A stretch of 64,000 bases of DNA from Alphaproteobacteria bacterium (GCA_033763775.1 JANRJW010000004.1:8755-72754), one strand, 5' to 3'; positions 32,960 through 54,027 are shown, counted from the stretch's first letter. The notes: generated by a model from the letters alone, not told the origin. Program-made: numbers and translations.

Positions 32960-33424
32960 ATGAGTACCAGAACCGATATGAGCATGGAAACAACGCCGGG
33001 CGTTCAGCTGGATGTGCGGGCGATTATCACTGTTACGGCGCGTCTCGCGCAGCTGCTGGCAGAAGAGGTGGATCTGCTCAGCGATATGAAAGTATCGAAA
33101 ATTGAGCACCTGCAGAACGAAAAAATCTTTTTGACCAATGCACTCGAAGCGCAAAAGAAACTGATTGATCGCAATCCGCACATGCTCGAGACCATTCCCT
33201 CGCAGGATCGCAGCGATCTTGAGCAGGTGGTCGAGGTATTCAGCGGTATTCTCGAGGAGAATCATCGCAAGCTGCTGCTGGCCAAAGAAATCAACCACAA
33301 AATTGTTCAGGCTATTACCAGTGTGGTGAAAGAAAACACCCAGAGCAAAGTGTATGACGATCGCGGCATCAAGGACATCGCGCCGTATGAGTCGCTTTCT
33401 GTCACACTGAACCAAACCATCTGA
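32960..33424 (+). CDS. putative FlgN-like flagellar export chaperone
   Basis: 154 aa. Helical, LAQLLAEEVDLLSDMKVSKIEHLQNEKIFL resembles FlgN. AGGAGG Shine-Dalgarno. Immediately precedes flgK-flgL, the FlgN clients. Confidence 0.45.
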   Translation: MSTRTDMSMETTPGVQLDVRAIITVTARLAQLLAEEVDLLSDMKVSKIEHLQNEKIFLTNALEAQKKLIDRNPHMLETIPSQDRSDLEQVVEVFSGILEENHRKLLLAKEINHKIVQAITSVVKENTQSKVYDDRGIKDIAPYESLSVTLNQTI

Positions 33425-33441: not shown

Positions 33442-36159
33442 ATGACCCTCTCTCTTGCGCTGAATAATGCCTTAAGTGGCCTTAACGTCAACCAGCAATC
33501 GCTATCGGTGTTGTCGCAGAACATTGCCAATGCCAATACGCAGGGCTACACGCGCAAGGTGATCAATCAGGCGGCGCTCTATCTTGATGGCCGCGGCGCC
33601 GGAGTCAGCATTGAATCAGTTTCGCGTAAGGTGGATGACTATCTGCTGCGCTCCATTCGTCTGCAGGGGAGTGTGGTGGGGCGCGGTGAGGTATATTCGG
33701 ACTATGCGGATCGCACCCAGTTGCTGCTAGGCAGGCCTGGTAGCCAGAACAGTCTGCCGAGTTTTGTGGGTAATTTTTTTAACTCCATTCAAACGCTGGC
33801 ACAAACACCGGAAAACACCACACTACGCGTTGGTGCGGTCAATAGCGCTACGGCGATGACGCGTGAAATCCGTACCTTGTCGCAATCACTGCAGGATATG
33901 CGGCTGGAGGCGGAAAATGACATTGTGCAGTCGATTAACGTTATCAATGCTACGTTGCGTGATCTCAAGGCGCTCAATGCCACGATTGTTAATGATTCGC
34001 AGCTTGGCAAAAATGTCGGCGAATTGCTCGACCGCCGCGACCGAGCGCTTGCTACACTTTCTGAATATCTCGATATCGGCACCTATCAACAGGCGAATGG
34101 GCAGATCAATATCTTCACCAGCAGCGGTGCCAGCCTGCTGGATGATAATGTGTATCAAATCAGCTATCTACCGCAATCCTCAACCACGGCCTTCATTAAC
34201 GATTCGGTCAAGGCGCCGATTAATATTTTTCGTGTGAATGATAGCGGCCAGCTGACTGGTAACCCTGTGCAGCTGGTTTCTGGCGGCAGAAGCGCGCAGG
34301 TAACCAGTGGACTGGTAGGCGGCAAGCTGCGCGGTCTTATTGATATGCGCGATAAGCAGCTGCCGAATCTGCTGGCGCAGCTGGATGTGGTGGCGTCTAA
34401 CCTGCGCGATGAGTTTAACCGCGTGCATAATAGCGGCGTAGGTTTTCCTGGCGCTAATAGCTATACCGGTGCACGTCAGGTGAATGCTGGCAGTTTCAGC
34501 CAGTGGAATGGCCAGATGCGCATGGCGCTGATGGATGGTACGGGGCGTCCGATCCCATCATCCTACCCGGATGAAACTTCTGGCGTGCGTCCGTTGCTGC
34601 TGGATTTCACCAAGCTGAATACTGGCAGTGGCGCGGGCTTTCCGACAATTCAAGGCATCATTGACGAAATCAACCAATATTACGGGCCACCGCAGAACAA
34701 GGCGGTGGTAGGCAATCTTAATAATATCCGTCTGGCTTCCAACAGCACGATACTGCCCGGAAGCCCGCCGCAGTTTAATTTTGATTTCGACCTTGAGAAT
34801 ATCTCCGGTAGCAGCTCGAATTTTTTTGTCACCGGTGTTCAGGTGCTCGATAATGCCGGCACGGATATCACCAACGTATCGCAAACCATTCCGCAGGTGG
34901 ATTTAACTGGCACCGGCACCTATACCACGACCGCCGGCAGCAGCACCGTCACCGTGCGTGCTGCAGCAAATCACGGCTTTACCAACGGCCAGACGATCTA
35001 TCTCTCAACACCGCCGGGCAGTGTTGGCGGTATTCCTGGGGCGCAGCTGGGGGGATTTTTCACCATCAGTAATGTGACCTCCGATACGTTCGAGATCACC
35101 GCAGGCACGCTCGCTACGTCCAGTGGCCCTGTCGATGTCGTCGGACAGAACGCGAAGCCACCTTACAAGGAAGTTGCGGCAGGTGAATATGGCCGCACAA
35201 CGGATCGCGGCACCATTACCGCCAATCTTGCTGGTAATCCTAACGCGCTGTTTTACACCGTGCGTGTGAATGTGGCGGTGAAAGATGCGGCGGGCAACAT
35301 GACCACCTCGCAGATCAGCTATCAGGTGGATAATAACCAGCCGAACCTGCGCAACCGACGCTACTCCACCAATGGTGTCAGCGGTGGTGGACAGCTCGTG
35401 GCACCAACAAACTTTCGGCCGCTTGCGCGCGCCATGCTGGTGGATGAAAACGGTGTTGAGTTGCCGAAAGTCAACGGTCAGTACACAACGCAGCAAAATG
35501 GTTTTCTCCGCCTCGTGGCAGATAACCCAGACGTTTCAATCGGCATTGATAGTTTAAACAGTGCCGAAAATGGCAGCCCGAACAGCAGCCCGCCGGTCGC
35601 AGGCACGGGTAGAGGGTTTTCTTATTTCTTTGAGCTGAATAACTTCTTCCGTCATTTTGACACGAATGGCGACAGCGTTACCAATGCCGCACTTAATCTG
35701 GATATTGAGGAGCGCATCGCACGCAATCCCAACTTGATTTCGCTTGGTCAGCTACGTCAGAGCCCGCGCCCGGCGGATCCGAATCAGGCGCCGCTTTACA
35801 CCTATGAGCGCAATATCGGCGATAATAGCATCATTCAGCAGCTGGCAGGGATTTCCAGCAAGATTATCCGCTTTCAGGCGGCGGGCGGGCTGGGTGAATC
35901 GTCCACCACCTTTGGCAGCTATAGCGGTGCGATTATCGGATCAGCAGCGACAACCGCCTCATCCGCGGAGGCGGATTTAAAAAATGCCAAGGCACTGATG
36001 TCTGGCTTCAGCGATCGGTCTGATTCGATCAGTGGGGTGAATCTCGATGAGGAACTCGCCAATACAGTGATTTATCAGAATGCCTACACCGCCTCCACCC
36101 GGGTGATTACGGTGGTGAGCGAATTATTCGATGCGCTTTTGAATACGTTTGGAAGATAG
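33442..36159 (+). CDS. flgK: flagellar hook-associated protein 1 FlgK (long form, 905 aa)
   Basis: N-terminus LNNALSGLNVNQQSLSVLSQNIANANTQGYTR and C-terminus GVNLDEELANTVIYQNAYTASTRVITVVSELFDALLN. Confidence 0.95.
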   Translation: MTLSLALNNALSGLNVNQQSLSVLSQNIANANTQGYTRKVINQAALYLDGRGAGVSIESVSRKVDDYLLRSIRLQGSVVGRGEVYSDYADRTQLLLGRPGSQNSLPSFVGNFFNSIQTLAQTPENTTLRVGAVNSATAMTREIRTLSQSLQDMRLEAENDIVQSINVINATLRDLKALNATIVNDSQLGKNVGELLDRRDRALATLSEYLDIGTYQQANGQINIFTSSGASLLDDNVYQISYLPQSSTTAFINDSVKAPINIFRVNDSGQLTGNPVQLVSGGRSAQVTSGLVGGKLRGLIDMRDKQLPNLLAQLDVVASNLRDEFNRVHNSGVGFPGANSYTGARQVNAGSFSQWNGQMRMALMDGTGRPIPSSYPDETSGVRPLLLDFTKLNTGSGAGFPTIQGIIDEINQYYGPPQNKAVVGNLNNIRLASNSTILPGSPPQFNFDFDLENISGSSSNFFVTGVQVLDNAGTDITNVSQTIPQVDLTGTGTYTTTAGSSTVTVRAAANHGFTNGQTIYLSTPPGSVGGIPGAQLGGFFTISNVTSDTFEITAGTLATSSGPVDVVGQNAKPPYKEVAAGEYGRTTDRGTITANLAGNPNALFYTVRVNVAVKDAAGNMTTSQISYQVDNNQPNLRNRRYSTNGVSGGGQLVAPTNFRPLARAMLVDENGVELPKVNGQYTTQQNGFLRLVADNPDVSIGIDSLNSAENGSPNSSPPVAGTGRGFSYFFELNNFFRHFDTNGDSVTNAALNLDIEERIARNPNLISLGQLRQSPRPADPNQAPLYTYERNIGDNSIIQQLAGISSKIIRFQAAGGLGESSTTFGSYSGAIIGSAATTASSAEADLKNAKALMSGFSDRSDSISGVNLDEELANTVIYQNAYTASTRVITVVSELFDALLNTFGR

Positions 36160-36170
36160 TGAGGTGAGAG

Positions 36171-37082
36171 ATGAGTATTGGCCGCGTTAGTACTTTTGGG
36201 CTTCAGCAGACGACGCTTCGCGATGCGTCGCGTACGCAGGAGCAGCTTTCTCAGCTTCAGATACAGCTCTCGAGCGGTCTTAAAGCACAGACATTTGAGG
36301 GCATTGCCAACCAGACGGAGCAGTTTCTACAGCTCGATACGCGTATTTCCCGTACCAGACTTTTTACGGAGAATAATCGTGTGGCGATTACGCGCATGAG
36401 CACGACCGATAACGTGCTGAGCCAGTCGATTGAAACCGTGACCAGCCTCAAAAGCCTGATCATGCAGCGTCGCAACGGTGCGATAGCGGGCAATATGGCG
36501 TTTCCTGAACAGCTGGAGGGCATCTGGAAACGACTCTCGGCAGAACTTAATACCACGCTTGAAGGCCGCTATCTTTTCAGTGGCACGCGCACGGATGTCG
36601 CCCCGATTAAAAGCTCTCCTTTTCCAACATTGCGTGTCGATGGCGTACCGGATGATGGCTATTATAATGGCAGCAGCGATGATATGACCATCCGTGCGGA
36701 TGATAATATCGATATCACCTACAACGTGCGTGCCAACGAACCGGCATATCAAAAAGTTTTTGCAGCGCTTGCCATGGCAAAGAAAGGCCATGAAACCGAC
36801 AATCAGCAGGATCTGATTAAAGCCTTCGAGCTTGCCGATCAAGGGCTGAAAGAGGTGATATCCGTGCGTGCACGTGTCAGCTCTAACAAACTATCATTGG
36901 AACAGATTGTCGAGCGTCAGGACTCGCTGTCGCTTTACTGGAAAGGTGTGAAAGAAGAGATTTCTAACACCGATCTGGTGACGGTTTCCACCCAGGTGGC
37001 TGTCAATCAAGGAGTGCTGCAAGCGTCATTTCAGGCATTTGCACGAATTAATTCCTTGAGGCTCGTCGACTTTTTACGCTAA
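36171..37082 (+). CDS. flgL: flagellar hook-associated protein 3 FlgL
   Basis: 303 aa. Flagellin-like N-terminus (RVSTFGLQQTTLRDASRTQEQLSQLQIQLSSG) and C-terminus (QASFQAFARINSLRLVDFL). Confidence 0.9.
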   Translation: MSIGRVSTFGLQQTTLRDASRTQEQLSQLQIQLSSGLKAQTFEGIANQTEQFLQLDTRISRTRLFTENNRVAITRMSTTDNVLSQSIETVTSLKSLIMQRRNGAIAGNMAFPEQLEGIWKRLSAELNTTLEGRYLFSGTRTDVAPIKSSPFPTLRVDGVPDDGYYNGSSDDMTIRADDNIDITYNVRANEPAYQKVFAALAMAKKGHETDNQQDLIKAFELADQGLKEVISVRARVSSNKLSLEQIVERQDSLSLYWKGVKEEISNTDLVTVSTQVAVNQGVLQASFQAFARINSLRLVDFLR

Positions 37083-37099
37083 ATTAGAGGAGATATTTC

Positions 37100-37606
37100 A
37101 TGTTTTCATCAGCAGGGTATTACGGCATGCCAACACAACTTCCCATTTCCAGCGGTCAGGATGTCGCCGGCGCGCCTGCAGGCGTCATCAAATCGCGCTT
37201 TGGCGAGGTGGCGGTGGACCCAGCCAAAATTCTTTCATTTCCTCGTGGTCTGCTTGGCATGCCGGAGCGTTTTCAGTTTATTCTCACCAGCTTCCCCAGT
37301 GATAAAATGGCGCAGTTCAAACTGCTGCAATCAACCGAAGACGAGGCGCTCTCTTTCATCACTCTGCCGCTGGATCTGGATAACCCGATTATTGCGCGTG
37401 GTGATATTCTGCTTGCCTGCCGTGATCTTGGCATTGCCGAGCAGGATCTTGCGATGCTACTCATTGTTTCAGTGCATCGCACGCCGGATCAGGTGAAGCT
37501 TTCGGTGAATGCCCGCGCACCGCTGATGGTCGATGCGCAGCGCCGCCTCGGGGTGCAGCATGTATTTTCGAGTGATGACTACAAAGTCCAGCACATGCTT
37601 GGGTAG
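37100..37606 (+). CDS. fliW: flagellar assembly factor FliW
   Basis: 168 aa. SRFGEVAVDPAKILSFPRGLLGMPERFQFIL...FKLLQSTEDEALSFITL matches FliW/DUF180. GAGGAG Shine-Dalgarno. Confidence 0.88.
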   Translation: MFSSAGYYGMPTQLPISSGQDVAGAPAGVIKSRFGEVAVDPAKILSFPRGLLGMPERFQFILTSFPSDKMAQFKLLQSTEDEALSFITLPLDLDNPIIARGDILLACRDLGIAEQDLAMLLIVSVHRTPDQVKLSVNARAPLMVDAQRRLGVQHVFSSDDYKVQHMLG

Positions 37607-37610
37607 AGGC

Positions 37611-39233
37611 ATGTCACTTGGCAACAGCCTGATTGATTCTTATCAGAAAGCTGATGCACTCCTGTGCAGGGGCGAACTGCAGCAGGCGGCTGATATCTGT
37701 AAACAGATGCTGGAGAGCAATCCAAACTTTGCTTATGGGTATCACTTGATGGCCTCGCTGTTCAAGGTCACGGGTAATTTTGAAAAAGCACTGAATTTTT
37801 CGGATCTTGCGATCAAGCTTGATCCTAATGTGCCCAGCTTTTATCTGCAGCGTGGCACGTTGCTCATGGCGCTGCACTGTTATGAAGCTGCTGAGGATGT
37901 GTTTCGTAAAGCCTACCAGATGAAGCCGGGTTTGATCCAGGCGCTCCTAATGGCGGCGGATGCTAGTGTTCATCAAGGACGCCACGATGATGCGGCGCGT
38001 ACCTTTGCACTGGCGCGTAGCCGCGCCACGGATCATGAGCAGGCGGATATTGATCAGCAGGAAGGCTTATGCCAGCTATCGCTCGGGCAACTGGCACGAG
38101 CCGAGGCACTGTTTGAAAGGGTGATAGCGCAGCGGCCGAATCAAGCCGGAGGTTATCTCCATAAAGGCCATATCCTGCTGCATCAGCAGCGCGATCAGGA
38201 GGCGGAGGTCTGCTATGCGCGGGCACTCAATTGTGATCCTCACCTGCAGGAAGCGCTGCATGGCATGGCTGTGGTGAATGAGCGCCAAGGTCAGATTGAT
38301 ACGGCGGTGGCATTTGCTATTCAGGCGGTGAGTGCGCATGGCACCGTGCTTGATAGCCTGCTACTGCTCGGGCAGCTATTGTTGCGGAAACAGAATTTCT
38401 CCGCTGCAGAGCAGATGTTCCGTCAGGCATTGGCCGTGGTGCCAGATCAGGTGGTGGCGCTGTGCGGGCTGTCACAATCATTGATAGCGCAGCGCAGGCA
38501 GCATGAGCTGGCAAGTTTTCTTGCGGAGCAGGCCACGATCATGCCGCAGCACGAAGGGCTGATTTTTCTTGCGGCGGCGGCAAGTGGGCAGAATGCTTTG
38601 CGAGCGCCGCAAAGCTTCATCAGCAGCTATTACGATGAGCTGGCGCGGCGTTATAATTATTTTCTCAGGCCGCTCGATATGTATCAGCCGCACCAGTGTG
38701 CTGAAATGCTGCGCGCGCTACCACAACTACAGGGGCGAACGAGCCTCAGCCTTGTCGATTTAGGGTGTGGCGATGGACGCCTATCCGCAGCGCTGGGGGA
38801 TGGTTTCTCTTTGCGCCTCGGGGTTGATCTCTCCAAAGCGATGCTGGATATTGCCCAGATACACCGCCGTTATGATGAGACCTACACGTTGGATATGGTC
38901 GAATTCGCCATGGGTAGTGACCGTATGTTTGATATCGTCGCTGCGATTGATGTGCTGCCGCATCTGGGAGATCTTGTACCCTTTTTCCGTGCGGCACGAA
39001 ACCTTCTCGCTTCTGCCAGCGTCATGGTGTTTACGATTGAAAAATCCAATTTAGAAGCTGCCTACACGCTGCGTCCGAACGGGCGTTATATGCATAGCCA
39101 TGGCTTCATCCACGCATTGCTGCAGGATGAGGGCTATAACTGTGTGTTTTCTGAAGAGGTGTTGCTTCGTCTTGAGGCGGGCGTGCCGGTGATGGGCATG
39201 GTCTATGTTGTTCAGAAAATGACGGTGCACTGA
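37611..39233 (+). CDS. TPR-repeat protein with C-terminal class I SAM-dependent methyltransferase domain
   Basis: ATG at 37611. The N-terminal ~330 aa are TPR-like repeats. The C-terminus has motif I LVDLGCGDGRLS and DIVAAIDVLPHLGDL. Its stop overlaps the next ATG (tgATGa, 39231-39235). Confidence 0.75.
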   Translation: MSLGNSLIDSYQKADALLCRGELQQAADICKQMLESNPNFAYGYHLMASLFKVTGNFEKALNFSDLAIKLDPNVPSFYLQRGTLLMALHCYEAAEDVFRKAYQMKPGLIQALLMAADASVHQGRHDDAARTFALARSRATDHEQADIDQQEGLCQLSLGQLARAEALFERVIAQRPNQAGGYLHKGHILLHQQRDQEAEVCYARALNCDPHLQEALHGMAVVNERQGQIDTAVAFAIQAVSAHGTVLDSLLLLGQLLLRKQNFSAAEQMFRQALAVVPDQVVALCGLSQSLIAQRRQHELASFLAEQATIMPQHEGLIFLAAAASGQNALRAPQSFISSYYDELARRYNYFLRPLDMYQPHQCAEMLRALPQLQGRTSLSLVDLGCGDGRLSAALGDGFSLRLGVDLSKAMLDIAQIHRRYDETYTLDMVEFAMGSDRMFDIVAAIDVLPHLGDLVPFFRAARNLLASASVMVFTIEKSNLEAAYTLRPNGRYMHSHGFIHALLQDEGYNCVFSEEVLLRLEAGVPVMGMVYVVQKMTVH

Positions 39234-40399
39234 TGAGCGCGCTGCTACAGCATCCGCTGCTTGGCGAGTTTCAGTGCCTTGGGGATCGCTGCGCGGATAC
39301 GTGCTGCAAAAGCTGGTCGATGCAGCTCGATGCCGCTACCTATGAAACCTACCAGCGAGAAGCACCCGAGCTTCTGGATGCAGTGGAGGCGGCAGAAGAA
39401 TCACCATGGATCATGCGTAAGGATAAACAGACCGGTTATTGTGTGAAATTCGATAATGGCCTGTGCGGCATTCACAAAAATTATGGCGATAAGTTTCTCG
39501 GGGATGCCTGCCATTTTTATCCGCGCGCCACACGCAAGCTTGGCGATCAGACGATCATGACCGCCACGCTGTCCTGTCCCGAAGTGGCAAGGCTCGCGCT
39601 ATATGCGGATGCGCCCTTTGGCTGGCGCGAAACAACCATCGACCGCTTGCCCTTCAGCCTCAAGGACTATCTGCCCGAGGCGCTCAGCGGCGAGCAGGCG
39701 CGCCATGTCCATGAAGCTTTTCTTCATGCCTGCGAAGATGCCGCTCCAGCCGAACAGATTCTTGCACGCATAGCCAGTGTGGCACGTTCCATGATGCTTC
39801 TGGATCAGGCAAGCTGGCCACAAGCGGTGGGTTTTTATTTGCGTATGGCCGACGGTCGTCTGCCTGCTGCTAAGGCGGATGTGAATGACCCGTTTAACCT
39901 GCTCCACGCGCTGATGGGGATTATTGTCGCCACTCGCAAGCCGATGAGCGAGCGCTTGCGCCAGACAGTTTCACAGATGCAGGCGATGCTGGCTGTCACT
40001 CTCGACTGGCAGACCACACAGATACACACCACCGATGCCAGCGCGCCAGCTTATCAGCAGGCGCGGCAGAACTGGGATGAGCACGCCGCATATTATCAGC
40101 CGCTTCTGAAACGCTACCTGCAGATGCAACTCTCTGTTTCTCTTTTTCCATTTTCGGGGCTTGGATCAAACGCGCCGGAGCGTATCACGCTGATCGGTGT
40201 CAGGCTCGCCACCATCAGGCTGGCACTGATGGCTGCGCATCAATGCCATGGCGATGTGCCGAATCAGGAAGAGGTGGTCAGGGTGGTGCAAAGTTTATCG
40301 CGCTGTCTGGATCATCTGGGCGATGCAGCCTTTTCACTCGCCATTTATCATGAAACGGGCTGGGATCAGGAAGCGCGCCTTCGTGGGCTGCTGATATGA
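39233..40399 (+). CDS. fliB: FliB-like flagellin lysine-N-methylase family protein
   Basis: 388 aa. The N-terminus FQCLGDRCADTCCKSWSMQLD...YCVKFDNGLCGIHKNYGDKFLGDACHFYPR parallels Salmonella FliB (FSCSGSACRDHCCKGW...C.......LC...C..FPR). Confidence 0.7.
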   Translation: MSALLQHPLLGEFQCLGDRCADTCCKSWSMQLDAATYETYQREAPELLDAVEAAEESPWIMRKDKQTGYCVKFDNGLCGIHKNYGDKFLGDACHFYPRATRKLGDQTIMTATLSCPEVARLALYADAPFGWRETTIDRLPFSLKDYLPEALSGEQARHVHEAFLHACEDAAPAEQILARIASVARSMMLLDQASWPQAVGFYLRMADGRLPAAKADVNDPFNLLHALMGIIVATRKPMSERLRQTVSQMQAMLAVTLDWQTTQIHTTDASAPAYQQARQNWDEHAAYYQPLLKRYLQMQLSVSLFPFSGLGSNAPERITLIGVRLATIRLALMAAHQCHGDVPNQEEVVRVVQSLSRCLDHLGDAAFSLAIYHETGWDQEARLRGLLI

Positions 40400-40450
40400 A
40401 ACCTAAAAATTTTCTTGTGATTCTTCAGTGGTGTGCTAGCTTTATGCACA

Positions 40451-40592: not shown

Positions 40593-43500
40593 ATGGTCAA
40601 CTCAATTAACACCAATATTGCGGCTTATTTTGCGCAAGCAAACATCAGTCGCGCATCCGATATGTCCTCATCGTCAGTCGCGCGTCTTTCGAGCGGTAAC
40701 CGCATCGTAAGAGCGTCCGATGACGTAGCAGGTCTTTCTATCGGTACCAGCCTTCGCACCAGCGTTTCGGCACTGCGTACCGCACTCGTGAACGCCTCGC
40801 AGGGCTCCAGCCTGCTTCAGGTTGCTGACGGTGCGCTCTCGCAGGTGACGGAGATTCTGCAACGTCAACGCGCCATTGCCTTCCAGGCGGGTTCGGGTAC
40901 GCTGCAAAACTCTGACCGCGTGTTCCTCAACCAGGAATTCCAGGCACTGACCTCTGAGGTCGATCGTCTGACGGGTTCCACCAACTTCAACGGTGTGCGC
41001 CTGCTCAACGGTTCGCTCACCAGTGCTGCTGGTATTAATTCGAATAGCAACGCTTCCACGGGCGGCGAACTTCGCCTCAACTTCAACGATCTCATCACGG
41101 CTGGTGAGTCGGTGATCGTTGGCGGCGTGACCATGGTTGGTCTGAGCTCTGCCTCGACCGATCCGCGTGGTTTCGTTGTCACTGCAGATATCAACACCAC
41201 CCTGCAGAACCTTGCTAACGCGCTCAATAACCTTGCTTCGAACGCTACTTACGGTACGTCGGTTGGCCAGGCTATTTACAGCGTGGATGGTAACTCGCTG
41301 GTGGTTAAATCCCGCACCGGCGGTACGCTCAGCAACAACTTCACCTCTTCTTCTGTGGCTACCGGCCAGTCGCTGAACGGCCTTGGATCTGCTGCTGTAG
41401 GCACGGCTGCTGGTGATGATATCACCATTAACCTTGCGAATTCCGGCTTTGTCGTCGGCCAGCGCGTAGTGTTTAATGGTATGTCGGCTGTCGGCGGTAT
41501 CACGCTCTCTGGCGAATATGTTGTGACCGCAGTAAGCGGCAGCAACTTTACCATTGATCAGGCTGGTACGCCTAGCAACACCACCAACGTGAACCAAGGT
41601 GCTAACGCGATCGTCTATGCTGCGACCGCTGCTTATACCAGCTCGGTTTCCTTTGGTGAGGCTACCTTCAACACTGGTGGTTCCAGTTTCAGCCTGTTTT
41701 CAACCACGGGTGCCACCTCGGCAACCACGGTGGTTTCTGCAAACGCGGCAGCAGCTGGCACACCTTTTGCCAACGGTGATTCCATTACCGCAACCGTGAA
41801 CGGCGTGACCAAGACCCTCTACACCTTTGGTGCAGCGAGTGACGGTGGTGCGCGTACGTTGAAAGACGTGGTGGATGGCATCAATGCTAACTTTGCCAAT
41901 ACTGGTTTCAAAGCAGCGCTGACCTATAGCGGTGGCGGCTATAACATTCGCCTCAGCTATGCCGGCAACGCCAGCAACGTGATCATTGATTACGGCAGCA
42001 ACTATGTTGGCACTAACTATGCTGTGGCTGGCCAGGGTATTGGCACTACGGCTGCGAATGGTGCAACAACAGCTACTACGGCTACCCGTGCGCTGTTTGG
42101 CACCAGCTACATTGATGTGTTGAACACTGCGAGCGGTGTAGCGAACTTAACCACCTCTGTGGTTGGTACCGATGCTACGGCTCCGTTTGCTGTTGGCAAC
42201 ACCATCACGCTGAACGTCAACGGCAAGAGCGAAATCCTGCATACGATTGCTGCAGGCAACACTCTGACGCAGATTGTCAGCAGCATCAACTCACGCACTG
42301 CCGACACTGGTGTAGTTGCGATGATCAGCGGCACTTCAGGCGCCTACAACATTCGCCTGTTTGTTTCTGATTCAGCTGCTTCCCCAACTGTTGCAGGCAG
42401 GACGAACGATGTGATCACCGTCAGTTCAGCCACAGCGCTGGGCAGCGGTACGGTGAACGCAGCTACATTTGGCACGATCGATTCCAGCACGGTGCTGGTG
42501 CGTAACAGCAACTTCGGTCTTGCGGGTGGTCTGGATAACGGCATCAGCGCAGGCAGTGTTTCGGTCACCGGTTCGGTGGGCGACAGCATCCTGACCGCGT
42601 TGGCACAGACTCGTGCGAACAGCTCGCTCATCTTCACCTCAAACGCTTCGGAGAACGACACCATTACCCTTGGTGGTAAGGTGTTCACGTTCACCAGCAA
42701 CACGACCCGCGGTGTGGATGAAATCCTGATCGGCTCGACAATTTCCGAAACGATCGACAACCTGATCAATACGCTGCGCAGTTATCTGGCGAACGGTAAC
42801 GCCACGACAGCAGAGGCCTACCAGCTCAACCAGATGGAATTTGCCCGCAGCGGCAATACCTTCACGGTGACGGGCAAGGGTCTTGGTAACATTACCACCA
42901 TCAATGGTGCGAATGCGACCATCGCACGTTCCAACACCACTGGTACGTCGCTCACCTCGGGCACGTTCAACAACGCCTCCAGCACCTATGGCGTGGATGT
43001 GACCGGCATCACCAACGCGGCTTTCCGCGGTGTGCTGCAGGGCTTCCAAGCCACTTACACAGGTACGGCGGATACGGTGAACCTATCGATCAAAATCGGC
43101 GACTTCACCTACACTGCTAACAACCTGGATGCCACGGTGTCTGCGAATACCCGGGTTCGCCTGTATTCCAATACGGTGGATGGTAAAAATGGTGGGTATT
43201 TCGATATCCAGCTTGCTTCGGGCGCTGTTGCCAATGGCTTCAGTGATCAAGCCGGTGCGGATGCGATTGCCAGCCGTCTGAACGTGGCGTTCACCACACT
43301 GACCTTCCGTCAGGAACGCCAGATCTCTAGCTACAATGGCACACAAGGTATCTCTTCCAACGGCACCATCATTGGTTCGCTGGTGGGTACCAGAGTGTCG
43401 GCTCAGGTGAATGATTTCAGCAGCCTCCGCTTGTCTGATATCAAAGTCACCGCACCGACCGGTAGTGCTACTGATGCGAAGATCAGCCTGCTCATCAATG

Positions 43501-44093
43501 GTGTAAGCTACAGCACCACGGCAGGTCTTGGTTCGAAGCTCGGCGCTAATCAGACCTTCCGTCTGGTCAGCGAGGTGGATGCGAATCAGTATCTCGAGTT
43601 CACGACTGGTAACACCTCCATCGATATCAGCTCGGCAGCAAACGCTGCTGCGGTTGAAACCGCTCTGAAGAGCGCCTTTGGTGCGACCTCCGGCTCTGCC
43701 GCGCTGTCGTTCCAGATCGGCTCCAGCGCGACCGATACGCTTGCTGTATCGATTGGTGATGCGACCACAGACTCGCTGTTTAACGGCGAAGTGCTCGATG
43801 TGTTGAGCCAGGCCAGCGCAACCCGCGCTGCCGCTGTACTCGATGCAGCACTACAGAAGGTCACCAGCATCCGTGCGGATGTGGGTGCGCTGCAATCCAG
43901 GTTTAACTTTGCTTCAGCGAACATTCAGATCGCTGTGCAGAACCAGGACGCCGCGCAGTCTCAGCTGCTCGATACTGACATTGCCTCTGAGTCGACATCG
44001 TATGCTACCTCGCAGGTAAAACTGCAGGCTGGTATCTCGGTACTCGCTCAGGCTAACCAGCAGCTCCAGGCTCTTCTGAAGCTGATCGGTTAA
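40593..44093 (+). CDS. fliC: flagellin, giant form (1166 aa)
   Basis: N-terminus MVNSINTNIAAYFAQANISRA...LSSGNRIVRASDDVAGLSIG and C-terminus IRADVGALQSRFNFASANIQIAVQNQDAAQSQLLDTDIASESTSYATSQVKLQAGISVLAQANQ are canonical D0/D1 segments. About 880 aa of Thr/Ser/Gly/Ala/Asn-rich middle. Confidence 0.95.
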   Translation: MVNSINTNIAAYFAQANISRASDMSSSSVARLSSGNRIVRASDDVAGLSIGTSLRTSVSALRTALVNASQGSSLLQVADGALSQVTEILQRQRAIAFQAGSGTLQNSDRVFLNQEFQALTSEVDRLTGSTNFNGVRLLNGSLTSAAGINSNSNASTGGELRLNFNDLITAGESVIVGGVTMVGLSSASTDPRGFVVTADINTTLQNLANALNNLASNATYGTSVGQAIYSVDGNSLVVKSRTGGTLSNNFTSSSVATGQSLNGLGSAAVGTAAGDDITINLANSGFVVGQRVVFNGMSAVGGITLSGEYVVTAVSGSNFTIDQAGTPSNTTNVNQGANAIVYAATAAYTSSVSFGEATFNTGGSSFSLFSTTGATSATTVVSANAAAAGTPFANGDSITATVNGVTKTLYTFGAASDGGARTLKDVVDGINANFANTGFKAALTYSGGGYNIRLSYAGNASNVIIDYGSNYVGTNYAVAGQGIGTTAANGATTATTATRALFGTSYIDVLNTASGVANLTTSVVGTDATAPFAVGNTITLNVNGKSEILHTIAAGNTLTQIVSSINSRTADTGVVAMISGTSGAYNIRLFVSDSAASPTVAGRTNDVITVSSATALGSGTVNAATFGTIDSSTVLVRNSNFGLAGGLDNGISAGSVSVTGSVGDSILTALAQTRANSSLIFTSNASENDTITLGGKVFTFTSNTTRGVDEILIGSTISETIDNLINTLRSYLANGNATTAEAYQLNQMEFARSGNTFTVTGKGLGNITTINGANATIARSNTTGTSLTSGTFNNASSTYGVDVTGITNAAFRGVLQGFQATYTGTADTVNLSIKIGDFTYTANNLDATVSANTRVRLYSNTVDGKNGGYFDIQLASGAVANGFSDQAGADAIASRLNVAFTTLTFRQERQISSYNGTQGISSNGTIIGSLVGTRVSAQVNDFSSLRLSDIKVTAPTGSATDAKISLLINGVSYSTTAGLGSKLGANQTFRLVSEVDANQYLEFTTGNTSIDISSAANAAAVETALKSAFGATSGSAALSFQIGSSATDTLAVSIGDATTDSLFNGEVLDVLSQASATRAAAVLDAALQKVTSIRADVGALQSRFNFASANIQIAVQNQDAAQSQLLDTDIASESTSYATSQVKLQAGISVLAQANQQLQALLKLIG

Positions 44094-44161: not shown

Positions 44162-44527
44162 ATGGATGTATTAGGAACAATAAAACCAGCAGCTACTACG
44201 CCCATGCCGGTGAAAGCATCGGCGGTACTTCCTGCTGCGTCATCTGCGCAAAGTATTCAATTGCCGCAACGCAATCTGGAGACCGTGCAGTATGATGCTA
44301 AAGTGGCGGATGCAAAGCGCCAGGAAGCGGTTGCCAATGCTGCGCGCAACGCGCCGCAGCCTCTGGGCAGTCAGGTCTTTACCATGTTCAAAGACTCTAC
44401 CGGCCAGATCGTGACGCGCTTTCGCGACACCAATAGCGGCAAAGTGACCTACATACCAGAGCCGCAGCTACTACGCATGGCAGGCAATACCAGCGGTTCG
44501 GAATCGCTGCTGAATATCAAGGTTTAG
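44162..44527 (+). CDS. flaG: flagellar protein FlaG
   Basis: 121 aa. The C-terminal TMFKDSTGQIVTRFRDTNSGKVTYIPEPQLLRMAG fits the FlaG family. AAGGAGG Shine-Dalgarno. Confidence 0.8.
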   Translation: MDVLGTIKPAATTPMPVKASAVLPAASSAQSIQLPQRNLETVQYDAKVADAKRQEAVANAARNAPQPLGSQVFTMFKDSTGQIVTRFRDTNSGKVTYIPEPQLLRMAGNTSGSESLLNIKV

Positions 44528-44650: not shown

Positions 44651-46777
44651 ATGGTAACCCAGATTCAATTAGGTAACTTCTACAGCTCTGGCGGAAGAAC
44701 CGTCGTGGGCGGTGCGGGCGGTTCCGGACTGGATACCCAGTCGATTATCAAATCACTCACCGATGCCAAGCGTCTGCCTGCCACTCAAATTGAAGATCGT
44801 ATCAAAACGAATAGTGAGCGTACCAAAGCGCTGACGGAATATCGCACGCTGATGGCAAAATTCAAAGATGCGCTCAATTTCCTACGCAACCCGCCGGGGG
44901 TTGGCAATGCCGCGGATAATGTTTTTCGCTATGTGAACGCCAGCGTGACTTCCAATAGCGCCGTTGCTGGAACCAGCTACCTTACTGCCAGTGTGGCACC
45001 GGGCGCTAGCTTACAGAACTACAGCGTTACTGACATTACCTCTGTCGCGCGTGCACGCCGCCAGAGCACGGCTAATTTCAGCATCGCTAATCCTGACACA
45101 GCCGTTGTGTCTGATTCACCTGCAGGCGTTGAGTTCAAAGCTGGAACTTTTACTTTTAAGGGCAAAAGCATCACGCTGAATGCGGGCGATAGCCTGAATA
45201 CAGTCGCCACCAAATTCAATGCAGTTTCTGCTGATACGAAAGTGACCGCCAGTGTTGTCCGTGTTGGGGATAACAGCTACCAGCTGCTTTTTACCGCCAC
45301 AGCTACCGGCACTGCCGTCGATTTTAATTTTAATGATGGCGGCACCACGCTGGTTGATGCAAGCAATGTATTTAGTCTTGTAACTGTGACCAACCAGCAG
45401 ACGGCGAGCAACGCAGTTTTCAAATTCAATGGCACGGAAATTACCAGGCAGTCCAACAGCGTGACCGATCTCGTCCCCGGGCTGACGCTGAATATTCTCA
45501 CCACCACGCCGCCAGAGCCGGATCCCACTGAAATCACCATCAATATCAGTCCGGATGCGCAGGTGGTCAAGGGCGGCATCATTAATTTCATCAATGCCTA
45601 TAACGATCTGAAAGTTTTTGCCGCCAAGCAGACGCAGGTAAATCCTGATGGCACGTATGCTGATACGGCGGTGCTGAGCAACAGCTCGGTGCTACGCAGC
45701 AGTCTGAGTAGCGTTTCCTCGCAGCTTTCCACGATTGTATCGGGTCTTGGCAGCGGTTTTAGCCGCCTTGCGGATATTGGTGTGGTGTCGGCGGATCTTC
45801 CGGAGTCGGATGAAAACCCGCTGGTGCGCAATATTTTGAATGTTGATGAAGGCAAACTTACCGAGGCAATCTCCAGTAACTTTGATCAGGTGCGTCGGCT
45901 TTTTGAATTTGATTTTGTTTCAAACAACCAGAATCTGCGTGTTTTTTCACGCACCAATGCACTCACCGCGAATAATTTTACGCTGGAAGTCAACCCCTAC
46001 GCGGTGCAGCAGACTAAAATCTATGAGATTGTGGATGCGAATGCCGCCGTTGTGGCCGCCAGCCCGGATAGTAATCAGATTAAAGCCGGCGCGGTGATCA
46101 TCAATAGCGTGGCGATTGATCTGGTGGCAGGCGATTCGCTGAACCAGATTCGCGATAAGTTTAATGCGGTGAGTGCAACCACCGGCGTAACGGCCGAAGT
46201 GGTTGAGACAGCGCCGAATAAGTTCCGCCTTAAATTCACCAGCACTGTCAATGGTGTTGATACTAACCTTCTTTCGTCAAGTGTGAATCCTAATGGCGTA
46301 TTCAGCGATGCAGGCATTACCGCAACCGCCAGCTACAAAGCGACTTATGCAGGCTCAGGTGGCCCAGTGACTCTTGATTTGACAGGTTCTTTTGTGCTGG
46401 GTTCAGGCAACAGCCCCAGCGGTATTCGCCTTGAGGGGCAAAGGGGCACGGCGCTGGAAGGGCTGGTGATGGTATATGCAGGCACGCTTTCTTCCAGTAT
46501 TGCGGTCAGTGCTACGCAGGGCATTGCGGATCGCATTTATAACCTCAGCGATGAAATTCTGAAGGAAGATGTAGGTGCGCTCGAAATTGAGCTTGAAAGC
46601 ATCAAAACCTCCGATACCAAGCTGCAGGAAGATATCAAGCGCATTGATGCTCAGGTCGAGCGCTATCGTGAAGAACTGCTTGCTAAATTCAGTGCGCTCG
46701 AGCAGGCTATTACGCGTGTTAACACGCTGCTTCAGAGCCTTGATGCCAACCAGCGCGCGATGAATGGAGAAAACTAA
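44651..46777 (+). CDS. fliD: flagellar filament cap protein FliD
   Basis: 708 aa. GLDTQSIIKSLTDAKRLPATQIEDRIKT N-terminus, two flagellin-IN-like repeats (SITLNAGDSLNTVATKFNAVSADTKVTASV / IDLVAGDSLNQIRDKFNAVSATTGVTAEV), coiled-coil C-terminus. Confidence 0.93.
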   Translation: MVTQIQLGNFYSSGGRTVVGGAGGSGLDTQSIIKSLTDAKRLPATQIEDRIKTNSERTKALTEYRTLMAKFKDALNFLRNPPGVGNAADNVFRYVNASVTSNSAVAGTSYLTASVAPGASLQNYSVTDITSVARARRQSTANFSIANPDTAVVSDSPAGVEFKAGTFTFKGKSITLNAGDSLNTVATKFNAVSADTKVTASVVRVGDNSYQLLFTATATGTAVDFNFNDGGTTLVDASNVFSLVTVTNQQTASNAVFKFNGTEITRQSNSVTDLVPGLTLNILTTTPPEPDPTEITINISPDAQVVKGGIINFINAYNDLKVFAAKQTQVNPDGTYADTAVLSNSSVLRSSLSSVSSQLSTIVSGLGSGFSRLADIGVVSADLPESDENPLVRNILNVDEGKLTEAISSNFDQVRRLFEFDFVSNNQNLRVFSRTNALTANNFTLEVNPYAVQQTKIYEIVDANAAVVAASPDSNQIKAGAVIINSVAIDLVAGDSLNQIRDKFNAVSATTGVTAEVVETAPNKFRLKFTSTVNGVDTNLLSSSVNPNGVFSDAGITATASYKATYAGSGGPVTLDLTGSFVLGSGNSPSGIRLEGQRGTALEGLVMVYAGTLSSSIAVSATQGIADRIYNLSDEILKEDVGALEIELESIKTSDTKLQEDIKRIDAQVERYREELLAKFSALEQAITRVNTLLQSLDANQRAMNGEN

Positions 46778-50156: not shown

Positions 50157-53100
50157 ATGAGTTTGTACGGTTCGCTTTTCTCTGGTGTGTCGGGACTGCG
50201 CTCGCAGAGTAACAAAATCGGCATCATCTCGGACAACATCTCCAACGTGAATACGGTGGGTTACAAAGCAGGTTCTGGCTTGTTTCAGAGTCTGGTGACC
50301 ACCGCTTCTGTTTCATCGACCTTCTCTCCGGGCGGTGTACTTGGCGGAAATCGCCAGCTGGTTAGCAAGCAGGGGCTTTTGCAGTCCACCGATTCACCCA
50401 CTGATATTGCGATTTCCGGTGGTGGCTTTTTTGTAGTGAATCAGGCGGCGGATCAGAGTGGCCGTACGTTCTACACACGTGCTGGTTCCTTCCGTCAGGA
50501 TTCCACCGGCAACTTCCGCAATGCTGCGGGGTTTTTCCTGCAGGCATGGCCGCTGGATCGCGAGGGGCGTCTGCCGGGTGAGCCAGGCAATACTAATACT
50601 ACTTCCAGCGCCAACCTTACCAGTCTTCGTACGGTTAACGTGCAGAACTTAACGGGCGTTGCGGCAGCAACGACCAATGTTTCAGTGGGTGCGAATCTGC
50701 GCGCTTCGCAAACTGTATTCCCAGGTGCTTCGGCAACCGCCAGCATGGATGCGCTGCATACGGTGAACTTTAACATCCGCGCGAAAGACATCATTACGCC
50801 GGATAACAGTTCGCCATTTGTTAACCGCATTCAGCGCGGCGATAAATTCTCTGTCAGCACCGGGGCGGGGCTCAGCTATACCTATCGCTATGGCGGCTTT
50901 ACGTTTGGCCGCGATGTCAGCAATGCTAACAGCGGCGATAATGGCCTGAACCTTCTGGCTGGTAACACGACCATTTCTGGCTCTGATACGCTATTGGCAA
51001 CCCCGTTTACTGTACCTAACAATAGCAACGTCGTCACCGTGACGATGGCTAATCATGGCCTTCTTACTGGTGATTCCGTTACCCTTGCTGGCAACACCTC
51101 CCCGGCGGGCGATCTTGGCACGATTCCAGGGACTCAGCTGAACGGTTCATTCATTATCACCAGAGTCGATGATGATACATTTACTATCCGTACAGTTGCT
51201 TCTAACACCTCTGGTGGTGCTGTTACGGGGGGTGCAACAGGTATCACTGCAAGCCCAAGAACTTTCAGTATCAGTGGTGAAGGCAGCAACGTAGTTCGTG
51301 TGCGTCAGCGCGATCATGGCCTGGCGACGGGTGCGGTGGTAACGCTCTCTGGCAACACGGATAGTTTTGCGGGTATTCCCTCTTCGGAACTCAATGGCAA
51401 TTTTGTGGTCACCGTGATTGATGCGGATCACTACACCATCAATACCGTCAACTCTGCCACTGCAACCACACTCGGCGCAACGCCGTTCAGCACCACGAAC
51501 GGTAGCCGGGACGTTGTGATTACTTCAACTGGCCACAACTACACGGTGGGTGATTCGGTAACTCTTTCCGGCAACACGGATACGACCAACTTCACGAGTG
51601 CCAACGATATCAATGGCACGTTTGTGGTGGTGGCTGCCACGGCCAATACTTTTACGGTTCGACTGACTAACCCGGCGATTGCTACCTCTGCGACGGCGGG
51701 TGCTGGCACCATCAAGGTGATTGAGCAGGCAGGCGGATCAGGTACGCTTATTTCCAATACCCGGCCGTTTGTTGGTAACGTGCTCGATGCCACCAGTCCG
51801 ACCCAACCGTTCCTCGGCACGACGGGCACCGCTGGCTATACACCATCCGGCCTCACCTTTACCATCACCACGGTCACCACGGGCACGGTAACCTTTACCT
51901 ACACCTCGGCCTCACCAAACCCTCAGCTTGGCCAGTTCAATAACCTGAACAACCTCGCTTCGGCGATCAGTTCAGTCAACGGCCTGTCAGCCCGCGTGGT
52001 GGATAACCGTCTTTATGTCAGCGCCACCAATGCTAACGAAGCGATCACCTTCTCTAACGGTTCCACGATCGGCACCTCCGGGCCACCAGTGCAAGCCGGT
52101 ATTGACTGGGTGCGTGAGCTGGGGCTTGATAGCCTCTCAGTAGGCACCGATCGTTTCAGCACCTTGGAAGGTCTTGCGGCACTCATCAATAACTCTGCAG
52201 GCGTCAGCGCAACGATTGAAAACCCAACATCTAACGCATCGCTGCGCATCAATGTGGATGATCCGCTGGATACCATCACCTTTGCCGACAGACCGGTGCC
52301 AACGGGCGGCTTTTCCGCCGCAGCCTTCGGCACGAATCCGCTGGCAACCACGGCCAATAGTCGCATCGTGACCATTACTACACTGGCGGCGCATGGTCTG
52401 ACCACGGGGGATATTATCACTCCGTCGGGCATTCCTGCTGGTACTTACAATGGTATCCCCGACACTGCGATCAACGGAAGTGCGTTTGAAGTGACCGTTA
52501 CTGGTCCCAACACCTACACCATCCGGTTGCCAGCTCAGTATTCCGCGACTGCTACGGGATCCTTTGGTGGTAGTGGTAACCTGACCACGACATCGCCCAC
52601 CAATGCCGGCAGTATTCTCGCTGAGCTTGGACTGGTGAACTCGCTGGCAGGTGCTTCCTTCACAGCGCAGACCACGGGTGCCATCGGCCCGGCCTATGAC
52701 CCGACCAACCCGCTGAAGAATATGGCATCTGGCGCTATTCCCGCGCAGTTCAGCCGTCCTATCCGCGTGTTTGATTCACTCGGTACCGGCCACGATCTCA
52801 GTGTGAACTTCATTAAGATTGGGGTGAATAACTGGGCGGTGGAAGTGTTTGCGCTTCCGGCGAGTGACGTGACCACGGCGCTGCCTAACGGCCTTTTGAC
52901 CTATGGTACCGTCACTTTCAACGGCGATAGCAGTCTTCGCAGTGTCAGCTCGCTGCTTGCTGATCCGGTGAATGCGACATGGACGAACGGCGCTGCTGCC
53001 AGCACCATTAACTTCAACTGGGGCACGGCAGGTCAGCCATTTGGCACCCCCGGTGCGGCAACGGTTGGCCTGACTGATGGTCTCAGCCAGTTTGACAGCG

Positions 53101-53498
53101 CGTACCGTGTGAGCTTTGTCAATCAGAACGGTGCGCCGGTGGGTGAGCTTTCCAGTGTGGCCATTGATGAAAATGGCTTCATTGTGGCGAGCTACAGCAA
53201 CGGTGAAACGCAGCGGCTCTTTAAAATCCCGCTGGCTGATTTTGCTAACCCCGACCAGCTTCAGACCCTGTCTGGCAACGTCTTTGCCGAAACGTCTGAT
53301 TCCGGCGAGGTGAACCTGGCGCAGGCTGGCTCCAGCGGTGTGGGTGAGATCGCCGCTTCAACACTGGAAGCCTCCAACGTGGAGCTTGCCGACCAGCTGA
53401 CGGATATGATTGTTGCGCAGCGCGCCTATCAGGCGAATACGCGTGTGATCACCACCTCCGACCAGCTGCTTGAGGAGCTCAACCGGATTCTACAGTAA
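50157..53498 (+). CDS. flgE: flagellar hook protein FlgE, giant form (1113 aa)
   Basis: N-terminus MSLYGSLFSGVSGLRSQSNKIGIISDNISNVNTVGYK and C-terminus EASNVELADQLTDMIVAQRAYQANTRVITTSDQLLEEL are canonical. The middle contains four copies of a shared module plus IN-like motifs. Confidence 0.95.
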   Translation: MSLYGSLFSGVSGLRSQSNKIGIISDNISNVNTVGYKAGSGLFQSLVTTASVSSTFSPGGVLGGNRQLVSKQGLLQSTDSPTDIAISGGGFFVVNQAADQSGRTFYTRAGSFRQDSTGNFRNAAGFFLQAWPLDREGRLPGEPGNTNTTSSANLTSLRTVNVQNLTGVAAATTNVSVGANLRASQTVFPGASATASMDALHTVNFNIRAKDIITPDNSSPFVNRIQRGDKFSVSTGAGLSYTYRYGGFTFGRDVSNANSGDNGLNLLAGNTTISGSDTLLATPFTVPNNSNVVTVTMANHGLLTGDSVTLAGNTSPAGDLGTIPGTQLNGSFIITRVDDDTFTIRTVASNTSGGAVTGGATGITASPRTFSISGEGSNVVRVRQRDHGLATGAVVTLSGNTDSFAGIPSSELNGNFVVTVIDADHYTINTVNSATATTLGATPFSTTNGSRDVVITSTGHNYTVGDSVTLSGNTDTTNFTSANDINGTFVVVAATANTFTVRLTNPAIATSATAGAGTIKVIEQAGGSGTLISNTRPFVGNVLDATSPTQPFLGTTGTAGYTPSGLTFTITTVTTGTVTFTYTSASPNPQLGQFNNLNNLASAISSVNGLSARVVDNRLYVSATNANEAITFSNGSTIGTSGPPVQAGIDWVRELGLDSLSVGTDRFSTLEGLAALINNSAGVSATIENPTSNASLRINVDDPLDTITFADRPVPTGGFSAAAFGTNPLATTANSRIVTITTLAAHGLTTGDIITPSGIPAGTYNGIPDTAINGSAFEVTVTGPNTYTIRLPAQYSATATGSFGGSGNLTTTSPTNAGSILAELGLVNSLAGASFTAQTTGAIGPAYDPTNPLKNMASGAIPAQFSRPIRVFDSLGTGHDLSVNFIKIGVNNWAVEVFALPASDVTTALPNGLLTYGTVTFNGDSSLRSVSSLLADPVNATWTNGAAASTINFNWGTAGQPFGTPGAATVGLTDGLSQFDSAYRVSFVNQNGAPVGELSSVAIDENGFIVASYSNGETQRLFKIPLADFANPDQLQTLSGNVFAETSDSGEVNLAQAGSSGVGEIAASTLEASNVELADQLTDMIVAQRAYQANTRVITTSDQLLEELNRILQ

Positions 53499-53550: not shown

Positions 53551-53703
53551 GCTATGATATAAGAAATGTAAAAAAAAGCAGATTTTTCTGTGTGTTTTGT
53601 GTGTGTTTCAGATTGACAAGCAGGCTTAAATTTTCTACCACTTACAGTAAGTTGGGATTTGTTTGTGTTAACTAAGTGGTTAATGCAGTTAACGTTTCAG
53701 GAC

Positions 53704-54027
53704 ATGGCCATGAAAAAAATCAATCTTCCACTCAGCAAGCTGAACATTACGGGAGCAAAAAAACCTTCCGAGGGGGATCCGGAAATCACCAACATGATGC
53801 TGGATGCGCGCTATCTGCGCCAGTCCTCTTCGCTCATTCAGGAAGCGCTGCAGAAGGGGTTTGATGTTCTCCAGCTGGCCAACGGCGATATTGTAACCAC
53901 CGGCACGAAAACGGTTGTGTACCAGTATAGCTGGGATGAGGAGAAGGGGAAGCTGGTGAAGGCTCGCCCCAGCAAATCGCGCCGTAGTGAAGATGAAGAA
54001 GACGAGCTCGAAGTCTCCGATAACTGA
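53704..54027 (+). CDS. hypothetical small acidic-tailed protein
   Basis: ATG at 53704 (MAMKKINL) preferred over the TTG track start. C-terminal SRRSEDEEDELEVSDN. No family recognised. Confidence 0.45.
   Translation: MAMKKINLPLSKLNITGAKKPSEGDPEITNMMLDARYLRQSSSLIQEALQKGFDVLQLANGDIVTTGTKTVVYQYSWDEEKGKLVKARPSKSRRSEDEEDELEVSDN

Follow-up and report, generated by a model that had tools for sequence, protein, structure and literature searches.

TPR-methyltransferase and FliB genes between fliW and fliC

In the window, a 64,000-nucleotide stretch of DNA from an alphaproteobacterium (G+C content of 53.8%), late flagellar genes lie closely spaced on one strand in the order flgK-flgL-fliW-ORF1-ORF2-fliC, with flgK as the first gene of the run (Table 1). 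ORF1 encodes a protein in which tetratricopeptide repeats (TPRs) are fused to a class I S-adenosylmethionine (SAM) methyltransferase domain, and ORF2 encodes a member of the FliB family of flagellin lysine-N-methylases. A preliminary description of this DNA had placed both genes in the same apparent operon as flgK, flgL and fliW, upstream of fliC, and this order, as well as the coordinates given for ORF1 and ORF2, was borne out from the sequence. The fliW stop is separated from the ATG of ORF1 by 4 nucleotides (nt), the stop of ORF1 and the start of ORF2 overlap as described, with one base in common (c-TGA-TG), and a 193-nt gap lies between the ORF2 stop and the fliC start. Since all orthologues begin at the equivalent of 37611 and an AGAGG stands 4 nt upstream of it, 37611 is the likely start of ORF1; an earlier in-frame ATG at 37533 falls within fliW. 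When positions 33000-44700 were scanned for promoters and terminators, the counts equaled the shuffled background and did not indicate operon boundaries.

The composition of ORF1 that had been read from the sequence, TPR repeats followed by a class I SAM methyltransferase, is agreed on by Pfam, the invariant SAM motif and the AlphaFold2 model. Many TPR families of Pfam cover residues ~5-320, and Methyltransf_11, 12, 25, 23 and 31 cover residues ~363-486, each above its cut-off (38.8 bits vs. 21.2 for Methyltransf_11). In the AlphaFold2 model, with a predicted local distance difference test score (pLDDT) of 78.8, a poorly predicted linker connects the TPR helices and a Rossmann-type domain at residues 379-536, and the class I features DLGCGxG, the acidic Asp406 and alternating strands and helices at 379-536 are all present. 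The motif quoted in the preliminary description, LVDLGCGDGRLS, corresponds to residues 381-392. Based on an alignment of eight orthologues with 39-96% identity, D383-L-G-C-G-x-G389, D406, D428, D441, E477, G491-R492, H495, K536 and the C-terminal H540 were invariant, and the most conserved block was located at the N-terminus (residues ~14-55, LQQAADICKQML..NPNFAYGYHLMASLF). In Foldseek searches, TPR proteins dominated the matches of the full ORF1 model, headed by the superhelices of OGT (1w3b, E 3e-13) and SPINDLY, and the separately modeled methyltransferase domain matched class I methyltransferases at E ~1e-9. ORF1 is probably cytoplasmic, because its hydrophilic N-terminus shows no signal peptide by eye.

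Both domains of ORF1 are under purifying selection. Compared with two related loci, the ratios of nonsynonymous to synonymous substitution rates (dN/dS) of the TPR half and the methyltransferase half were 0.085 and 0.17 (vs. L006) and 0.085 and 0.076 (vs. L017), and those of other genes were 0.03-0.05 for most structural flagellar genes, 0.045-0.087 for flagellin and 0.099 for FliW (vs. L017). ORF1 evolves fastest among the genes of the locus, with identities to L009 of 39% for ORF1, 53% for FliB and 75% for FlgI. Where the window departs from the L006 orthologue, which is 95% identical, the amino-acid differences cluster just after SAM motif I (~38770-38810, residues ~390-402), with GDGRLSAALGDGFSLRLG in the window and GDGLFSAALGDFACSRLG in L006, and much of the higher dN in the methyltransferase half is due to this cluster.

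Judging from its sequence, ORF2 is an ordinary member of the known FliB family. Its match to the NCBIfam equivalog NF038110, "flagellin lysine-N-methylase", reached 145.3 bits (E 3.5e-42; cut-off 85), where residues 12-361 aligned with profile positions 6-365 and 350 of the 373 positions were covered. The likeness to FliB, already pointed out in the preliminary description, extends to a CX4CX3CC motif and to eight cysteines (C15, C20, C24, C25, C70, C78, C93 and C115) that were invariant in an alignment of 15 FliB sequences; ORF2 also carries FQCLGDRCADTCCKSWSMQLD, LCGIH and CHFYPR, and adjoins fliC. Pfam FliB_C (PF27117) did not match ORF2 in the Pfam-A copy used and is precomputed for orthologues such as the protein P0075 (97% identity) and for the fliB products of L001 and L003. 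Among the 454 FliB homologues found, the close ones are named "flagellin lysine-N-methylase [Rickettsiales bacterium]" by NCBI, and a PDB sequence search found no solved structure related to ORF2. The flagellin of the window has no Cys, a Ser+Thr content of 26% and 16 Lys, of which 13 fall within its central part (residues 181-1070).

As for the neighboring genes, FlgL scored slightly under the cut-off of TIGR02550 (118.4 bits vs. 127.2, E 4.5e-34) and under that of NF006489 (144.3 bits vs. 217, E 5e-42). The flagellin gene is followed by a 121-residue ORF and the genes of FliD, FliS, FliK, FlgD and FlgE, all on the + strand. The external axial flagellar proteins (FlgK, flagellin, FliD and FlgE) are all oversized, and FlgE carries an insert with a Pfam E1_FCCH match (residues 734-796; 43 bits vs. 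a cut-off of 29.5). The 121-residue ORF occupies the usual place of FlaG, and a 154-residue ORF stands between a rod-binding FlgJ-like gene and flgK, where FlgN could be expected; both lack Pfam and NCBIfam matches and are syntenic across all related loci. Just past the flagellar cluster are a gene for a DUF2671 protein and, on the opposite strand, one for a Wzy_C/O-antigen-ligase-like membrane protein, for which O-antigen ligase and protein O-oligosaccharyltransferase are possible identities. The FliX and DUF2671 genes are consistent with an alphaproteobacterium.

Table 1. Coordinates of genes and sequence features in the flagellar region of the window (aa, amino acids)
Feature	Position	Strand	Description
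flgK	33442..36159	+	905-aa hook-filament junction protein; Pfam FlgK_D1, E 2.6e-41; TIGR02492, 292 bits vs. cut-off 170.75
flgL	36171..37082	+	303 aa; Pfam Flagellin_N, 48.2 bits vs. cut-off 26.6
fliW	37100..37606	+	168-aa flagellin-binding assembly factor; Pfam FliW, E 8.7e-16, above cut-off
ORF1	37611..39233	+	540 aa; fusion of TPRs and class I SAM methyltransferase
TPR arm	37629..38582	+	ORF1 residues 7-324; 19 helices, ~9.5 repeats (AlphaFold2 secondary structure)
Class I (Rossmann) SAM methyltransferase domain	38685..39230	+	ORF1 residues ~359-540; predicted template modeling score (pTM) of domain model 0.78
SAM-binding motif I, LVDLGCGDG	38751..38777	+	ORF1 residues 381-389, read from sequence
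TGATG	39231..39235	+	ORF1 stop 39231-39233, ORF2 start 39233-39235; base 39233 common to both
ORF2 (fliB)	39233..40399	+	388 aa; flagellin lysine-N-methylase family
CX4CX3CC motif	39275..39307	+	C15-LGDR-C20-ADT-C24-C25 of ORF2
fliC	40593..44093	+	1166-aa flagellin, presumed substrate; Pfam Flagellin_N and Flagellin_C
154-aa ORF	32960..33424	+	No Pfam or NCBIfam match
121-aa ORF	44162..44527	+	No Pfam or NCBIfam match
fliD	44651..46777	+	708 aa
flgE	50157..53498	+	1113 aa
DUF2671 gene	53659..54027	+	
Wzy_C/O-antigen-ligase-like gene	54466..56526	-	685-aa membrane protein

Position of ORF1 in related loci and same-slot variants

Because generic TPR proteins saturated a search with full-length ORF1, in which only seven orthologues came up, we used a FliB-anchored census, comprising 454 homologues, three context look-ups and a metagenome scan with 55 loci, and it was this census that revealed how widely the subfamily is spread. 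In all, 70 related loci were compared. The nearest loci are metagenome-assembled genomes (MAGs) labeled "Rickettsiales bacterium" and "Alphaproteobacteria bacterium", and the proteins of L006 are 95-100% identical to those of the window. When the proteins of the window were searched by tblastn, the complete order PBP2-DksA-FliX-FlgI-FlgJ-orf154-FlgK-FlgL-FliW-ORF1-FliB-FliC-orf121-FliD-FliS-FliK was present in L001, L003, L007, L008 and L009, and L006 has the order in common up to orf121, where its contig ends. In L003 alone, a gene for a Stealth-family (CR1-CR3) putative hexose-1-phosphoryltransferase (1789-2898, - strand) lies between dksA and fliX. Among the related loci, the long-armed TPR-methyltransferase was seen only between fliW and fliB (the window, L001/L002/L008, L003, L006, L007, L009, L010, L013, L014/L015, L017, L018, L021, L022, L023, L028, L036 and L071), and the same placement was found for all five true orthologues from a genome scan with the ORF1 query, in exact-protein orthologue look-ups and in loci reached independently via FliB. 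The preliminary description had named the complete lack of a flagellar linkage in related genomes as an outcome that would speak against it; instead, the slot between fliW and fliB holds every orthologue of the subfamily that was found. Many independent contigs show this gene order, which is not due to chance. Spacing is another matter: ORF1 and fliB are 4-24 nt apart in the orthologous loci, and the one-base overlap is specific to the lineage of the window, so that what the orthologous pairs preserve is close operon spacing and not an obligate translational coupling.

To place ORF1 in its wider family, a profile of the methyltransferase domain was used, which retrieved 1104 proteins at E <= 1e-6, many of them named "predicted TPR repeat methyltransferase" by the Joint Genome Institute (JGI). 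This family, which we take to be COG4976-type, is widespread and uncharacterized. The nearest relatives of the methyltransferase domain are a stand-alone copy in L024 (39% identity) and the 168-residue protein P0196 (40%), followed by proteins of 200-370 residues (mostly ~300-370) that are ~30% identical and come from Microvirga, Aureimonas, Allorhizobium, Variovorax and others. None of five distant TPR-methyltransferases checked (<=30% identity; two JGI-named and three longer) was found in a flagellar neighborhood, and the flagellar placement is therefore specific to the long-armed subfamily. ORF1 and the family share the ~30% identical domain and the arrangement of N-terminal TPRs and a C-terminal methyltransferase, whereas the members listed have 168-368 residues and far fewer TPR matches than ORF1, with its 540 residues and ~9.5 TPRs. 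By these sequence comparisons, ORF1 is a specialized offshoot of the family, set apart by its long arm and its constant place among flagellar genes.

Considering this scattered family, together with the repeated loss of ORF1 described below, one could regard ORF1 as a general TPR-methyltransferase that was inserted by chance and has no flagellar role. We consider this very improbable, since the same slot is kept across 34-96% identity and ~15 distinct lineages, ORF1 is never elsewhere in the loci recovered, and it is under purifying selection.

Several related loci contain other genes at or near this position. In L042, a 556-residue protein with TPRs at the N-terminus and, at the C-terminus, a sulfotransferase domain (Sulfotransfer_3, E 6e-36) is encoded at 8164-9834 (+), overlapping the fliB stop by 4 nt and upstream of fliC (10058), which hints at sulfation of flagellin or of a flagellin glycan by a TPR-armed enzyme. 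L040 encodes two TPR proteins of 571 and 520 residues (3727-5442 and 5439-7001, both +), the second overlapping the fliB start (7001); their C-terminal ~300 residues have no Pfam or NCBIfam match, and neither fliW nor other flagellar genes were detected upstream. In L024, an ORF1 orthologue (14-928) is followed by a 305-residue ORF without a family match on the opposite strand (1080-1997) and by a split pair before fliB (3187), composed of a 151-residue TPR protein (2011-2466) and the stand-alone methyltransferase of 226 residues (2501-3181). L020 has a 226-residue TPR-only ORF (5004-5684, +) 244 nt before fliB, from which the methyltransferase domain is deleted, and in L048 and L050 the gene after fliB is a ~280-residue ORF whose glycosyltransferase-like match is weak. 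Taken together, the gene arrangements suggest that TPR-armed enzymes with differing catalytic domains gather at the site next to fliB and fliC.

Possible substrate and role of ORF1

We favor the explanation, at a probability of roughly 0.5, that ORF1 and FliB form a cytoplasmic flagellin-tailoring pair, in which the TPR arm recruits flagellin and ORF1 adds a methyl mark. The pair would be expressed along with the late flagellar genes, and FliB, as a SAM-dependent [4Fe-4S] enzyme, would monomethylate exposed lysines in the central domains of flagellin before export. The methyltransferase domain of ORF1 would have been taken from the "predicted TPR repeat methyltransferase" family, with the short TPR region expanded to a superhelical arm of ~320 residues. 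This arm may hold unexported flagellin, or flagellin complexed with FliS or FliW, as the arms of FlmG, Maf-1 and OGT hold their substrates, and would present it to the Rossmann-fold domain, where a methyl group would be transferred from SAM. As for the mark, the methyl-lysine made by FliB may be methylated further, or a different side chain may be N-methylated. Domain content, the intact SAM motif, membership of ORF2 in the FliB family, conserved position and purifying selection are established here, whereas it is inferred that ORF1 binds flagellin, acts on it and carries out this chemistry.

Several observations weigh against the flagellin-tailoring pair. Flagellin methylation by ORF1 is deduced from gene position, nothing computed identifies the substrate, and the host belongs to an uncultured MAG lineage. 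ORF1 is accessory and dispensable: fliW is directly followed by fliB without ORF1 at ~27 loci, and most fliW-fliB-fliC loci lack it (loci without ORF1 include L016, L019, L025, L026, L029-L031, L033, L037, L039, L044, L046, L048, L050, L051, L053-L056, L062, L064, L066-L068 and L070). In a FliB tree, constructed by neighbor-joining without support values, all ORF1 loci fell in one crown subclade, interspersed with ORF1-less loci, and the basal clades were entirely without ORF1, which fits one gain followed by repeated loss. The TPR fragment of L020 could be the product of decay, or alternatively a functional TPR-only protein. Furthermore, the link to giant flagellins that the preliminary description had envisaged was not found when flagellin length and central-domain composition were compared with ORF1 presence in 28 loci. 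Flagellins had 587-1285 residues in loci with ORF1 and 563-1212 in loci without it, and neither length nor composition correlated with its presence; L014 has ORF1 alongside a 587-residue flagellin, and the close relatives L016, L025 and L026 lack ORF1 despite flagellins of 1173-1212 residues. Lastly, the matches of the methyltransferase domain are generic class I enzymes and do not fix the type of substrate.

These matches are as follows. Against PDB sequences, the domain best matched UbiG (9rfr, E 3e-6) and dTDP-amino-sugar N,N-dimethyltransferases (E ~1e-4), all far under family cut-offs. By Foldseek, NTMT1/2, METTL6, METTL9, toxoflavin N-methyltransferase and NNMT were nearly tied at template modeling (TM) scores of 0.5-0.6; the protein N-methyltransferases NTMT1/2 and METTL9 are thus among the fold neighbors, with weak discrimination. 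As only generic class I neighbors with near-tied scores were obtained, we dropped the assignment of a substrate from sequence or fold. ORF1 did not match CheR families in Pfam or NCBIfam, none of the best 60 of 68 PDB matches (E <= 1) was described as a PKMT1/PKMT2-like outer-membrane-protein lysine methyltransferase, and kinship with CheR-TPR proteins and with the rickettsial OmpB methyltransferases PKMT was dropped for want of matches. Glycosyltransferase families had no match in ORF1 either, its C-terminal domain being a methyltransferase.

The UbiG and amino-sugar matches would suit an enzyme that methylates, at N or O, a sugar or small molecule ending on flagellin, such as a glycan or a nucleotide-sugar precursor, and not the polypeptide. 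The Ser+Thr content of the flagellin, which resembles that of many glycosylated flagellins, and the Wzy_C/O-antigen-ligase-like gene 10 kb downstream point the same way. However, the stretch of 28.5-62.3 kb yielded no gene for a glycosyltransferase, Maf, FlmG or nonulosonate biosynthesis, the low scores of the sequence matches count against them, and a TPR arm of 320 residues speaks for a protein partner, so that we regard this route as unlikely.

If the partner is a protein, ORF1 could act on a flagellar protein other than flagellin, namely FlgK, FlgE, FliD, FliW, FliS or FliB. The closely spaced run places ORF1 downstream of flgK-flgL-fliW, the oversized axial proteins include three of these candidates, and the presence of ORF1 is untied to the length or composition of the flagellin. 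We nevertheless doubt such a target, as ORF1 is immediately upstream of or near fliB at every locus found, with fliC ~200-400 nt plus the fliB gene away, and the characterized TPR-fused tailoring enzymes of flagellar loci act on flagellin. The same constant neighborhood directly before fliB would be expected if ORF1 were mainly an adaptor of FliB, with an arm that delivers flagellin or FliS to FliB or keeps FliB in a complex, and with a methyltransferase domain that is secondary or regulatory. The N-terminal TPR block is the most conserved part of ORF1, L020 retains a TPR-only ORF, and Salmonella FliB has been reported as a membrane-associated oligomer that receives FliS-bound flagellin (PMC8598068). 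Even so, the residues that bind SAM are invariant and purifying selection acts on the methyltransferase half, FliB acts without such a partner in Salmonella, and most loci here lack ORF1; that L024 has this methyltransferase domain once more, as a stand-alone protein, also argues that catalysis matters. An adaptor role is accordingly hard to favor, and we give it a low chance.

The two-enzyme flagellin modification unit of the preliminary description stands in part. The FliB identity of ORF2, the ORF1 fusion and the common operon remain, and the tie to giant flagellins and the conserved coupling do not. Beyond the flagellin-tailoring pair, we tentatively consider a broader and rather speculative possibility, in which free-living Rickettsiales-like alphaproteobacteria would possess a modular tailoring family, with a TPR arm that grabs flagellin and swappable heads beside FliB. 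The heads would be the class I methyltransferase of ORF1, the sulfotransferase of L042 and the no-match domains of L040; the mark of ORF1 would be one beyond the reach of FliB, such as lysine di- or trimethylation or a methyl group on Arg, Gln, Asn, His or the N-terminus, and the outcome might be a sugar-free combinatorial code on the filament.

The flagellin-tailoring pair, if true, would have wider consequences. Known flagellin tailoring consists of glycosylation by Maf, FlmG or other glycosyltransferases, or of lysine methylation by FliB, and a TPR-armed class I methyltransferase would be a third type of flagellin-tailoring enzyme. Flagellin capture by a TPR arm would then have been reused with different chemistries, to which the TPR-sulfotransferase of L042 likewise points, and the large "predicted TPR repeat methyltransferase" family would gain its first functional lead.

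Comparison with known TPR-armed and flagellin-modifying enzymes

The idea that the TPR part acts as a substrate-recruiting arm, raised in the preliminary description, has experimental precedent in two flagellin-modifying enzymes. The N-terminal TPR domain of FlmG, the flagellin glycosyltransferase of Caulobacter, is necessary and sufficient to bind flagellin (PMC7591256), and so is the TPR domain at the C-terminus of Maf-1 from Shewanella (bioRxiv 10.1101/2023.12.03.569772). ORF1 resembles these enzymes in that a TPR domain of ~310 residues is fused to a catalytic domain, in its probable cytoplasmic location and in its flagellar-gene setting, which for FlmG is likewise that of an alphaproteobacterium. 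In contrast, the head of ORF1 is a class I SAM methyltransferase and not a GT-B or MAF_flag10 glycosyltransferase, and no sugar pathway lies nearby. The eukaryotic O-GlcNAc and O-fucose transferases OGT and SPINDLY also use an N-terminal TPR superhelix to choose the proteins on which their C-terminal catalytic domain acts; however, their catalytic fold and chemistry are unrelated to those of ORF1, and the match is confined to the repeat superhelix.

FrzF and WspC are CheR-family glutamate O-methyltransferases that carry C-terminal TPRs and act on chemoreceptors. As in ORF1, a methyltransferase is fused to TPRs in a motility-related pathway, but ORF1, which has no CheR match, belongs to a different methyltransferase family. 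The preliminary description knew of no TPR-methyltransferase with a role in flagellar assembly, and our literature search on TPR-methyltransferases in flagellar systems and on COG4976 likewise found no characterized example; a paper on flagellin methylation in Aeromonas names no TPR-methyltransferase.

For ORF2, the closest characterized system is FliB of Salmonella, which is SAM-dependent, binds an oxygen-sensitive [4Fe-4S] cluster on its N-terminal CX4CX3CC motif and has eight highly conserved cysteines and no recognizable domain (Wang et al. 2021, PMC8598068). It has been proposed to act on flagellin bound to FliS in the cytosol, where exposed lysines of the D2 and D3 domains would be its sites (PMC8598068). 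ORF2 is like Salmonella FliB in its profile match, its CX4CX3CC motif, its eight conserved cysteines (by count), its similar length and the adjacent fliC. Unlike Salmonella FliB, ORF2 is known from sequence, and its host is represented by an alphaproteobacterial (Rickettsiales-like) MAG. Gene order also differs, as the enterobacterial arrangement is a fliC-fliB-fliA region and that of ORF2 is fliW-(ORF1)-fliB-fliC, and the presumed substrate of ORF2 is the 1166-residue flagellin, whose central region has only 13 lysines.

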